The position numbers and the translations under genes were made by a program. DNA of 64,000 nucleotides, taken from an uncultured Alphaproteobacteria bacterium (GTDB lineage: Bacteria > Pseudomonadota > Alphaproteobacteria > Bin95). Numbering within the stretch: the stretch's first letter is position 1; each line of letters opens with the position of its first letter. The stretch covers positions 2,087 to 66,086 of the forward strand of contig CALLKY010000029.1 in assembly GCA_938083135.1 (NCBI GenBank), read 5' to 3'. Under the pieces are notes generated by a model, which was not told the DNA's origin, did no database searches, and was given only the letters and a program-made list of their open reading frames with translations. Positions 44,689 to 47,582 of this stretch are shown one piece after another.

Positions 44689-45594
44689 ATGAATAAGCTC
44701 ATATATTTAGGTCTCTGCGCCTGTCTGCTTTTCGGCTGTACTAATAAATACCGAATGAAAGATGTGACTGGTGTTGGACGCCTGGACCTTCCAGCTATGA
44801 CTTGGAAGCAACTCACTGCATTCGCCGCCAACCCGGGAGCAATGTATATGTCCGTGGATCCACAATCAGGCGGTACCTATTTCGCAAGGTGTCCGGAGGC
44901 ACCCTGTATCGGCGGCGATACTCTGCGTTATGTGATCGATCGCTGCTCTAGCAAGTACAACGGGCAATGCAAACTTCTCTCGGCCGGCCGACAGATAGCC
45001 TGGGACGGACCAATATACGTAGCAGATCGCCTTGTATGGACACCTGAAATTGGGCGTCAGACCGAAATAACGTGGAGGCATGCTGAAGCGATTAAACGGA
45101 AGCGGCTCGGCATTATTTTGAATATCCATTATCAAGCCACTGACCGTTCCAGCGCGAGCAAATGGCGGCGCGGAACGGCTTGGATGCGACAGTCATCAAG
45201 CAGCCCAACGCTATTCGTCGAGTTGGAAGGCAGTGCTACCTGTGATGTTAGTCTAATGCCTGAAACCAGTTCAAGCGGCCGTGTGACCCCACTCAAAGGA
45301 GCTATCAAGGGCGAGTGCTTCGATAATGCGGGCGCGAAACTCATGAGCTTAGAAGGGCACTATGAAAGCAAAAAGCCTTTTAACGGTGTGGTGAAAGCAA
45401 CGGACCAATCCGGGCGTAAACTTGAGATTTGGTATAAGCGCCGGATTACCTCTTCCTTGCACTCTACTCCCTGCTGTTTCCCGAATCCTCACAAGCGCCT
45501 TGGTGCTCCCGTAGGCCCCCGGCATCATGCAAACGCTTCTACATCGCTGAATAGCAGCCTTAGGCCTATAGTTCCGTTTACGGATATACAATAG
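44689..45594 (+). CDS. Two-domain Cys-rich lipoprotein (DUF4189-like N-domain); the 3' end may be over-extended
   Basis: Lipobox LLFGC. Domain 1 is G.GR.D...TW..F...CPE.PC...R.AI..C....CKL. Domain 2 is GEC...GRK.EI..RR. It is paralogous to 46842..47582 and lower in GC than the flanks. The last roughly 50 codons after KRR look like read-through. Confidence 0.55.
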   Translation: MNKLIYLGLCACLLFGCTNKYRMKDVTGVGRLDLPAMTWKQLTAFAANPGAMYMSVDPQSGGTYFARCPEAPCIGGDTLRYVIDRCSSKYNGQCKLLSAGRQIAWDGPIYVADRLVWTPEIGRQTEITWRHAEAIKRKRLGIILNIHYQATDRSSASKWRRGTAWMRQSSSSPTLFVELEGSATCDVSLMPETSSSGRVTPLKGAIKGECFDNAGAKLMSLEGHYESKKPFNGVVKATDQSGRKLEIWYKRRITSSLHSTPCCFPNPHKRLGAPVGPRHHANASTSLNSSLRPIVPFTDIQ

Positions 45595-45662
45595 GTAAAA
45601 CGCCCCACCGCATATTGATATCAAGCTGCCACATCAGGTTGATAGACCGCAGAATAAAAGCG

Positions 45663-46742
45663 TCAAACGATCTGATTGCGGAGGTCGTTGCCCGCGGTCA
45701 TTCTTTCCAGATTGTCCATCAGGATGTCGAGGACGTTGTCTTCGTATATTCGGGTTTCGCCACCGGAATGCGGGGTGAGCAGGATGTTTTCCAGGCCCCA
45801 GAGTGGCGAGTCTGCGTGGAGGGGTTCGGGCTCCGTCACATCAATGCCTGCCCCTGCGATCTGGCCATTTTGTGCGGCTGCGACCAGGGCATCGTGGTCA
45901 ACGCAGCCGCCACGCGCGACGTTGACGAGATAGCCGGTTTCCTTCATTGCAGCGAAAGCCTTGGCGCCCATCAAATTGCGGGTTTCTGCCGTTAACGGGC
46001 AGGCCAATACGACGATATCAGCACGCGGCAGCAGTGACACAAACTTATCAGTTGTATGAAGTTCATCGACGCCTTCAACGGCCTTGGATGGGTCACGCCG
46101 CACGCCAATAACATTCATGCCAAACGCCTTTGCCAGTCGTGCAATCCGGCCGCCAATCTGGCCCGTGCCATAGATCAACAACGTCTTGCCCGGCAGTTCT
46201 TCTTCCCGGCGGGAGATGTCTGCGATCATCGGGCGCCAATGGGCCTTCCGCTGATTATCCCGTGCAATATGGGTGAGGCGGGTCATGCCGAGGATAAGCG
46301 CCAGTGCATGATCGCTGACGGCATTGGCGTTTACGCCAGCTGCGTTGGCCAGCTTAACGTTGTGCGCCTTGACGGCAGCTTGATCGAACTGGTCATAGCC
46401 AACGGCACAGACCTGGACAAATTGCAGGGACTTGGCTTCATCCAGGAATTCATTTTTCCAGAATCCAGACGCCACAAGCACATGCCCTTCGCCAATGCGA
46501 GCGCGGGTATCTTCCGGCGTAAATGTCTGAAAATGCTGAATCCCTGTGCCACGCGCTGCAAAACGATCAGCGAGTTGATAGGCGCTGTGGGCAAAGTGGA
46601 TATTGAGAGCATCGCGGGCTGGAAAATTGGTCAATGGCTGGTCCTTGGGAAACGGATATCCGGTGCCGAATAAGGTACAGCAGGATAGGGCATGGGCCAA
46701 GTAAGGCCTCCAATTTGCAACAACAAGCATCGCGCCTTGCAA
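45663..46742 (-). CDS. D-isomer-specific 2-hydroxyacid dehydrogenase (glyoxylate/hydroxypyruvate reductase-like)
   Basis: GTGQIGGRIA NAD motif and LLTPHSGG. The N-terminus may be shorter than the ORF. Confidence 0.8.
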   Translation of the reverse strand: MQGAMLVVANWRPYLAHALSCCTLFGTGYPFPKDQPLTNFPARDALNIHFAHSAYQLADRFAARGTGIQHFQTFTPEDTRARIGEGHVLVASGFWKNEFLDEAKSLQFVQVCAVGYDQFDQAAVKAHNVKLANAAGVNANAVSDHALALILGMTRLTHIARDNQRKAHWRPMIADISRREEELPGKTLLIYGTGQIGGRIARLAKAFGMNVIGVRRDPSKAVEGVDELHTTDKFVSLLPRADIVVLACPLTAETRNLMGAKAFAAMKETGYLVNVARGGCVDHDALVAAAQNGQIAGAGIDVTEPEPLHADSPLWGLENILLTPHSGGETRIYEDNVLDILMDNLERMTAGNDLRNQIV

Positions 46743-46841
46743 ACTAGGGTCTCGACAATAGGGCCCTTGCCCTGAAATTAATTGTTATTCGCACGCGTTC
46801 GCAATATGGTTTTAGCTGTGAATATTTCCATAGGTGGTTGT

Positions 46842-47582
46842 ATGGTCGTGAAAAAATATAAGCGCTTTTCCATTCTGGGGTTGGCGTTGTTGATCATAGG
46901 CTGCGTCGCCACCCAATCCTTGGATGACATCATCGGCACTGGACGGGTTGATATCGCCCAGCGAACTTGGACGCATTTTCAGAAATACAAAGATCTGCCG
47001 GACGGTGGTGCATTCGTCTACAACAGGCGCGCAAGGTATGCATATTATAACTATTGCCCAGAGGTCCAATGCGCTTTGAGTGATAGGGTCCGCGACGCGA
47101 TTTATGGATGCGAGCAAAAGTCGGGTGAGGGCTGTAAGCTCTTCGCACAAAATGGTGAAATTGTTTGGCGTGGCTAAGTCTATGTTGATGGCGCGAAAGT
47201 TCATAATGGCATAGACAAGGCATCAGCATCATCCAGTCCTCCAATCCGATTGCCTGCGAAGTATAGAATGGTTTCTAAAACTGATCAGGGGCCGTGGCGC
47301 GTCGGTACAATAGAAGTGCGCGAAGATGGCTTAAGTAATGTGTTCTCAGCAGAGTTTGCGAAGAACATTCGATGTGAGGGCACATTTCTTGGTGCACAGC
47401 GGTTTAAGACATCGGCCAAGTATTTCACGACCATGCGTGGTGAATGCCTGTTTGGAAAAATGATCGAACCGTATTCTACATTCACTGGCTCTCTTAATGT
47501 GATCGCAAAGCACACCGGCCATATCACCGCGAAAGACGGCCAGGGGCGAAAGACAGAGATCGTATTTCAGTCACGGCGCTGA
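46842..47582 (+). pseudogene. Paralog of the 44689 lipoprotein, split by an in-frame TAA at 47176..47178
   Basis: Lipobox LLIIGC, AGGTGG RBS. ORFs 46782..47177 and 47250..47582 are in the same frame. The alignment to copy A runs straight through the stop (IAWDGPIYVADRLV versus IVWRG*VYVDGAKV). Confidence 0.5.

Follow-up and report, generated by a model that had tools for sequence, protein, structure and literature searches.

The domain family DUF4189 (PF13827), represented by Rv1813c of Mycobacterium tuberculosis (PDB entry 7NHZ) and by XAC2611 (Tpf) of Xanthomonas citri, consists of small secreted cysteine-rich alpha/beta domains that are stabilized by disulfides and lack catalytic residues; its known members act by binding. 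In published work the fold was described, for Rv1813c, as two tandem beta/beta/alpha/beta lobes facing each other, with a conserved C-terminal WACN motif, and XAC2611 was reported to bind VirB5 in the periplasm (bioRxiv 10.64898/2026.05.09.723464). A second described group is formed by the small eight-stranded lipoprotein barrels (fHbp, TbpB, LolA-like and calycin-like proteins). Here, a 64 kb stretch of contig CALLKY010000029.1 from an uncultured alphaproteobacterium, the whole of which is termed the window, was analysed around two genes (copy A and copy B) for two-domain lipoproteins, in which an N-terminal domain 1 is, like DUF4189, a small cysteine-rich alpha/beta domain without a catalytic pattern and a C-terminal domain 2 is predicted to form a barrel. 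The two proteins are considered, with moderate confidence, to be anciently diverged, vertically inherited paralogues of the cell envelope that would serve in non-enzymatic binding, copy B having been interrupted by a nonsense mutation and copy A extended by the loss of its stop codon.

The features of the locus are listed below (window coordinates; L and P numbers denote the loci and proteins of relatives).

43628..44683, + strand: Zn-dependent alcohol dehydrogenase (ADH) gene (Pfam ADH_N and ADH_zinc_N).
44689..45594, + strand: copy A, 301 residues; lipobox LFGC, with the codon of Cys17 at 44737..44739; orthologues in P0003 (58% identity) and L003 (81%).
~44743..45060, + strand: domain 1 of copy A (profile search of the translated window).
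~45103..45441, + strand: domain 2 of copy A (profile search of the translated window).
45457..45594, + strand: stop-loss read-through tail of copy A (DNA alignment with L003 and L001).
45663..46634, − strand: D-isomer 2-hydroxyacid dehydrogenase (HADH) gene between the copies (Pfam 2-Hacid_dh_C, E = 9e-56).
46842..47174, + strand: N-terminal part of copy B, 111 codons, comprising signal peptide, lipobox IIGC (codon of Cys21 at 46902..46904) and domain 1.
47175..47177, + strand: in-frame TAA of copy B, at the boundary of domains 1 and 2.
47178..47582, + strand: post-stop part of copy B, comprising a linker and the domain 2 beta-barrel, in frame and undamaged, with TGA at 47580..47582 (domain 2 profile, hmmsearch E = 4e-44).

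Both lipoprotein reading frames were recovered where a preliminary description of this DNA had placed them, and the single-frame translation of 46782..47585 contained one internal stop and was otherwise open, so that the frame of copy B is broken by the TAA alone. Two coordinates of that description were corrected. The TAA lies one base earlier than 47176..47178, and copy B probably starts at ATG 46842 instead of TTG 46782, because AGGTGG is found upstream (46832..46837) and the N-termini of the orthologues agree. The same evidence favours ATG 46842 over ATG 46806, at which some public gene calls begin copy B (123-residue product with an MVLAVNISI start). The ATG of copy A is situated 5 nucleotides past the ADH stop codon. 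Further paralogues were sought by profile searches of the six-frame translation of the 64 kb, which recovered A and B only.

The TAA of copy B aligned, without any indel, with TCG (Ser) in L002 and L004 and with CCT and CCA (Pro) in L003 and L001, respectively, and the outgroups carried C at 47176. The TAA allele was present in four independent assemblies, namely the window, L005 (European Nucleotide Archive, ENA) and L016 and L017 (Joint Genome Institute, JGI), the latter three being 99.85–99.89% identical to the window, and the exact truncated product of 111 residues had been called on 16 public contigs from four sources. The 90% identity cluster of copy B also contained intact proteins with Ser or Tyr at the stop position, the corresponding codons being TCA (Ser) in L015 and TAT (Tyr) in L013 and L014. 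These intact alleles coexist with TAA at an identity of at least 99.6%, and the lesion is therefore not fixed in the lineage. Taken together, the alignments show a genuine nonsense allele that is both polymorphic and common. Reassignment or read-through of TAA was ruled out, as this codon ends 19 of the 51 genes of the window.

Over the 1597 bp common to seven haplotypes, the TAT haplotypes were identical to the TAA haplotypes L016 and L017 except at 47177, while the TCA haplotype differed from L016 and L017 at four further sites. The most parsimonious series would be TCA to TAA to TAT, i.e. a nonsense mutation followed by in-codon reversion to sense; if right, such a reversion on the TAA haplotype argues that full-length B is still useful. 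The frame after the stop contained no further stop or frameshift, and its ratio of nonsynonymous to synonymous substitution rates (dN/dS) against L002 was 0.13, compared with 0.12 before the stop. Because translation ends after codon 111, the exported product lacks domain 2. The truncated B would thus be a lipidated protein consisting of domain 1 only, and full-length B would be restored in the sister strains with Tyr (TAT).

In copy A the codon TTG at 45457..45459 aligned with TAG in L003 and TAA in L001, and 45 extra codons, beyond the ends of the orthologues, were read up to the TAG at 45592..45594. The earlier remark that copy A lacks a stop and bears an added tail was therefore borne out (45 residues past the orthologue stop), and the tail is the product of a fixed stop-loss (TAG to TTG), through which translation runs on into what was intergenic DNA. 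The tail is carried by every long protein in the 90% cluster of copy A; its end varies (P0169, P0171), as expected of unconstrained sequence. Two truncated variants of copy A with at least 90% identity (P0163, 96 residues; P0168, 196 residues) both ended in the foreign peptide RADSHHS(V/G)S, with different break points (after residues 87 and 187), which points to a single kind of element or rearrangement that breaks copy A at two positions in other strains.

Copy A and the read-through translation of copy B could be aligned over 251 residues with 25% identity (BLASTP E = 1e-20), the alignment crossing the stop. The similarity of the two copies, which had been named beforehand as the point on which their kinship could fail, was thus significant, the quoted motifs were present and the description of A and B as paralogous two-domain cysteine-rich lipoproteins of unknown function was upheld. 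The claim of a recent duplication was not. In a neighbour-joining tree the A-type and B-type proteins formed separate deep clades, each with its own orthologues in relatives, and the single-copy relatives were nearer to B. Given these clades and the identity of only 25%, the duplication is ancient.

Close homologues proved to be very rare in a search of 5.8 billion proteins. Those of A type were P0001 (99% identity, same tail), P0002 (81%) and P0003 (58%); those of B type were P0004 (82%), P0005 (71%), P0006 (67%) and P0007 (59%), all four of which were intact at 239–245 residues. A search of a genome collection with copy B alone found one metagenome-assembled genome (MAG). The gene order was ADH, A, an extra gene, HADH, B, Rieske, amidohydrolase in L001 (NCBI MAG) and A, HADH, B in L003 (Logan); L002 (ENA seawater metagenome) and L004 (MAG labelled Alphaproteobacteria bacterium) showed ADH, HADH, B, Rieske and no A. 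Copy B therefore occupies the same site in L001–L004 and copy A is found in L001 and L003. The HADH orthologues were called at 323 residues and were 89–96% identical to that of the window. Two genes of L001 were not present in the window: a gene for an FAD-dependent oxidoreductase (DAO; L001 10771..12078), which is the extra gene between A and HADH, and a cytochrome P450 gene (L001 16036..17226) after the amidohydrolase gene.

By BLASTN, exactly 44678..45666 of the window was missing from L002 and L004, in which B is intact. L001 is more distant from the window than L002 and L004, yet carries A, and in the still more distant L008, L009 and L010 (ADH 89–92% identical) a two-domain lipoprotein gene was located 21–28 nucleotides past the same ADH. 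Since L001, L008, L009 and L010 all carry a gene behind ADH, the absence of A from L002 and L004 is best read as a clean deletion. Counting L003, a two-domain lipoprotein gene followed the ADH orthologue at a distance of 3–28 nucleotides in five relatives (L001, L003, L008, L009 and L010). Directly past the two-domain gene of L010, a degenerate second copy of domain 1 (1346..1660) with an internal stop and no signal peptide was observed, which is a decayed tandem duplicate. The comparison shows that the lipoprotein genes are inherited vertically at a fixed site within a clade of uncultured marine or estuarine Alphaproteobacteria.

Evolutionary rates were compared by Nei–Gojobori estimates and protein identities. 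Between L001 and the window the identities were 97.7% for ADH, 98.5% for the amidohydrolase and 88.9% for HADH, compared with 58% for A and 50% for B; between L002 and the window they were 95–99.8% for the neighbours and 82% for B. The dN/dS values were 0.18 for A, 0.12–0.13 for B and 0.005–0.045 for the neighbours, which shows that both copies are under purifying selection and evolve several times faster than the genes around them. The synonymous divergence (dS) of B between the window and L002 was 0.73 and thus within the range of the neighbours (0.49–0.76), which argues for co-inheritance and against separate transfer. In the comparison of the window with L003 (2505..3242), the dS of copy B was ~1.9, next to 0.74 for the adjacent HADH and 0.58 for copy A; the raised value could reflect allelic replacement or recombination at B, or saturation noise. 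The family had also been described as rapidly decaying. Its much faster evolution and its recurrent lesions (the nonsense codon of B, the stop-loss of A, the clean loss of A from L002 and L004 and the decayed remnant of L010) agree with these words, but the picture of decay is tempered by purifying selection before and after the stop (0.12 and 0.13) and by the apparent in-codon reversion.

The mean guanine + cytosine (GC) content of the 51 genes compared in the window was 56.2% (s.d. 2.4). Copy B (49.1%, z = −2.95) was the lowest of the 51 and copy A (51.5%, z = −1.95) the third lowest, so that the reported AT-richness stands for both copies; it does not extend to the HADH gene (56.2%, z = 0.0). 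As HADH, with its average composition, lies between A and B, these are two separate low-GC genes and not an islet. In three relatives, too, the orthologues of A and B stood out within their loci by a low GC content; given this and the dS shared with the neighbours, the low GC content seems to be an old trait of the lipoprotein family. No tRNA gene was present in the 64 kb window, no Rfam element was found in a scan of the local sequence, no integrase occurred among the neighbour genes as judged by family annotation, the repeats flanking A and B were short and at chance level, and a promoter and terminator scan around the genes gave nothing beyond chance. The synteny between ADH and Rieske had been put forward as a check for an insertion; the same context was kept in relatives, with orthologues that are low in GC, and an insertion was not supported.

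Pfam and NCBIfam contained no family for A, B or their orthologues, and A and B gave no match to DUF4189 even at E ≤ 0.1. A profile of seven family members was searched against 1.84 billion representative proteins (E ≤ 1e-3) and returned 499 matches, nearly all of which comprised domain 1 only (~16 had both domains). The consensus of domain 1 consists of the lipobox, G-x-G-x-x-x-L-S/T, a helix, FAVS-x-DG, C-x4-C, a helix ending in C, a short loop, C-K-I-Y-A and I-V-W-x-G; its four cysteines were invariant or nearly so in 62 diverse members. Tandem domain 1 (two copies) was found in 31 of the 154 collected proteins, and fusions to Peptidase_C14, TPR plus CHAT, Sel1 and SHOCT domains occurred. 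In P0041, P0062 and P0090 domain 1 was located at the N-terminus of large Peptidase_C14 (caspase-like) or TPR plus CHAT proteins, which suggests a possible use of this module in targeting or sensing outside the cytoplasm. The gene contexts of the wider domain 1 family revealed no conserved partner.

DUF4189 was the sole recurrent Pfam match among the relatives (15 of 147 proteins at E ≤ 0.1; three of 62 isolated domain 1 segments). The best match of a domain 1 relative scored 23 bits (E = 1.2e-4; gathering cutoff 25) and covered profile positions 1–46 of 97, falling on the beta-beta-alpha-beta core of domain 1. Alignment of the domain 1 profile with the Rv1813c sequence (7NHZ) using hhalign gave E = 0.029 over 36 columns, on a helix-Cys-loop-Cys-strand motif. 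The AlphaFold model of domain 1 [mean predicted local distance difference test (pLDDT) 92.8] contained strands 33–38 and 45–49, helix 60–72 and strand 77–81, i.e. one beta-beta-alpha-beta unit, with an N-terminal strand-helix and a C-terminal hairpin as additions. In a Foldseek search of the PDB with this model the best match was to an MPN domain (E = 0.099) and 7NHZ was not among the matches listed; when the PDB was searched with a domain 1 profile, the sole match was a sirtuin at chance level (E = 0.95), and a word-indexed search with its profile gave seven short unnamed proteins without Pfam labels. The resemblance to DUF4189 claimed for domain 1 is accordingly retained in part: a weak match recurs on the core, while it concerns the first lobe only, stays below threshold and is absent from A and B themselves. 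Domain 1 is probably a distant single-lobe relative of DUF4189 and not a member.

Domain 2 is predicted to be an eight-stranded antiparallel beta-barrel with a conserved Cys pair that would form a disulfide bridge. The full-length model (pLDDT 74.6) consisted of an alpha/beta domain and an eight-stranded barrel, and the best Foldseek folds for domain 2 were designed barrels (TMt ~0.6), LolA, the C-terminal barrel of fHbp and TbpB. Domain 2 had no match in a Pfam scan or in a PDB profile search. Protease-inhibitor (I38/Inh) and MliC-type barrels, considered as candidates, were without support in the Foldseek lists.

Both N-termini fit the classic lipobox pattern, as had been proposed. A carries K3, LFGC and Cys17, and B carries K4, K5, K7, R8, IIGC and Cys21; the pattern was also seen in the orthologues and in 126 of 152 family representatives, only one of which had Asp as residue +2. 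A and B would be processed by Lgt and LspA and then tethered by the N-terminal lipid, and the +2 residue, being Thr or Val rather than Asp, would direct them to the outer membrane. The near-invariant residues of both domains were Cys, Gly, Trp and Ala, which is a structural and not a catalytic pattern. A and B may thus act by non-enzymatic binding or shielding in the periplasm or at the cell surface, and binding would fit the characterized DUF4189 proteins. They may also be partly redundant, since copy B is intact in the lineage that has lost A, and A persists in the lineage in which B is truncated; such redundancy would explain why the loss of either is tolerated.

Other explanations of the stop codon were considered. 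The TAA is one base away from a Ser codon, the rest of copy B is undamaged and intact alleles exist at an identity of at least 99.6%, points that speak for a sequencing or assembly error in an organism with an intact copy B; this is nevertheless exceedingly improbable, because the same TAA was obtained in the window and in three independent ENA and JGI assemblies, the exact truncated product occurs on 16 contigs from four sources and a substitution to TAA is untypical of assembler errors. Alternatively, the truncation could be adaptive, in that a lipoprotein of domain 1 only is functional and the loss and regain of domain 2 reflect fluctuating selection on an exposed protein. In favour of this, the stop coincides exactly with the boundary between the domains, lipoproteins of domain 1 only with ~105–130 residues are numerous among the natural members of the family (e.g. 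P0011 and P0015), no other allele is as common as the nonsense one in public assemblies, TAT represents a reverting allele and the protein evolves fast. However, both in the domain 1 model and in the naturally short proteins of this subfamily IVWRG is followed by two beta-strands (PIYV...V) that truncated B does not have, and contig counts are not equal to allele frequencies, so that an adaptive origin is possible but doubtful. Still less likely is a bolder form of this idea, in which fluctuating selection would act on B as a lipoprotein that is exposed at the surface or senses contact, codon 112 with its TCA, TAA and TAT alleles would be a natural off-and-on switch of the barrel and domain 1 would be a widespread but unrecognized half-DUF4189 binding module. 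B might then serve as a receptor for phages or predators, or in exclusion or kin recognition by analogy with XAC2611, and the half-DUF4189 module would span ~500 clusters (50% identity level), with occasional fusions to Peptidase_C14 and CHAT.

With regard to origin and role, the preliminary description had proposed a recent duplication within a horizontally acquired low-GC islet that is undergoing neutral decay. The GC ranks of A and B (third lowest and lowest), the lesions in both copies, the absence of A from L002 and L004 and the very few close homologues among 5.8 billion proteins are all compatible with this. It is hardly tenable, however, in view of the 25% identity and the deep A and B clades, the synteny kept in all relatives including outgroups, the average GC content of HADH between the copies, the low GC content common to the orthologues, a dS equal to that of the neighbours, the lack of a tRNA, repeat or integrase and dN/dS values of 0.12–0.18 that are not relaxed after the stop. 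Horizontal acquisition is unsupported for the same reasons, viz. syntenic orthologues in a conserved order (ADH-A-HADH-B-Rieske), common low GC, average HADH composition and the absence of island hallmarks, including RNA elements. The lipoproteins might, on the other hand, be accessories of the adjacent dehydrogenases, for instance with the barrel capturing a substrate for a catabolic pathway. A lipoprotein gene lies 3–28 nucleotides behind the same ADH in every relative examined except L002 and L004, and the fold of the barrel domain resembles ligand-binding barrels. Yet L002 and L004 keep ADH (97% identity) after the loss of A, evolutionary rates are decoupled about tenfold, a signal peptide is lacking in ADH, the oxidoreductases encoded nearby are generic and without a pathway assignment and members of the wider domain 1 family occur in unrelated contexts. 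This role is therefore improbable; since ADH persists unchanged without A and the rates are decoupled, a functional link to ADH is unlikely, and the position behind ADH may reflect co-transcription.

Several points weigh against the account preferred here, that of ancient, vertically inherited envelope lipoproteins with a binding role. The link to DUF4189 is below threshold and extends over half a domain. Seven sequences underlie the full-length model, which has a predicted template-modelling (pTM) score of 0.48, and Foldseek reached E < 1e-3 for neither domain (PDB searched with the full-length model and with that of domain 1; BFVD searched with the full-length model). The proposed outer-membrane sorting makes use of the +2 rule of Escherichia coli, which may not be that of the host lineage. 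No characterized homologue backs a binding function, and the conserved spacing of 3–28 nucleotides behind ADH could point to a role connected with this enzyme. The order TCA, TAA, TAT was obtained by parsimony from seven haplotypes, and the path TCT, TAT, TAA is a less parsimonious alternative.

The genes surrounding A and B encode generic oxidoreductases next to asd, none with an equivalog-level pathway assignment. An MscS-like channel gene (41131..43584) formed one unbroken open reading frame of 817 residues in the window. The near-identical assembly L005 was without one C at window position 43245 of this gene, and in L005 and L006 the gene was called in pieces with a separate C-terminal reading frame of 97 residues; the difference at 43245 reflects a polymorphic frameshift or, alternatively, an error of assembly. 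A gene of 205 residues at 49724..50341, with a weak Glyco_hydro_19 match (E = 0.066) as its sole family match, had a GC content of 51.0% (z = −2.2), yet a high GC content at third codon positions; it was present in L001 and L013 and not in L002 and L004, and is another variable spot of the same neighbourhood. At 52628..59735, an alpha-2-macroglobulin-like gene of 1683 residues was followed by a gene of 681 residues. The pair was kept in L002, in which the counterpart of the latter carries transglycosylase and transpeptidase domains (penicillin-binding-protein type). Alpha-2-macroglobulin-like and penicillin-binding-protein-type genes are a known bacterial pairing.

The analysis defines a previously unannotated two-domain lipoprotein family and places its domain 1 in a large lipoprotein module that is absent from Pfam and NCBIfam and is apparently a single-lobe relative of DUF4189. 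This should be of use for domain curation and for research on DUF4189, now that Rv1813c and XAC2611 have recently been given functions. The nonsense-then-sense series at codon 112 would be an example, from wild uncultured populations, of selection restoring an envelope protein. No new mechanism, system or pathway is involved.

Compared with DUF4189, domain 1 shares the beta-beta-alpha-beta unit, the Cys of the helix, the short loop and the Cys that opens the next strand. Only the first of the two lobes is matched, with a score below the gathering cutoff, and the WACN motif is not found in A or B, which have IAWDG and IVWRG, respectively, with no Cys-Asn after it. Additional elements of domain 1 are a CxxxxC pair and, at the N-terminus, a GxGxxxL(S/T) strand with a helix, and A and B differ from DUF4189 proteins in their predicted lipid anchor and their fused beta-barrel. 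With the small eight-stranded lipoprotein barrels, domain 2 has in common a predicted eight-stranded barrel within a lipoprotein, and these proteins were among its best Foldseek matches; it differs in the lack of a fold match at E < 1e-3, of sequence similarity to Pfam or PDB entries and of an identified partner, of Slam type or otherwise, and its Cys pair and W-x-x-G motif are specific to the A/B family. The lesions themselves are like ordinary nonsense and stop-loss polymorphisms of dispensable envelope genes, which likewise comprise single-base changes, loss in sister lineages and coexisting intact alleles. Copy B departs from ordinary nonsense polymorphisms in that, with the haplotype otherwise unchanged, its stop was apparently turned into TAT, a sense codon not seen before; this speaks for continuing selection on full-length B.

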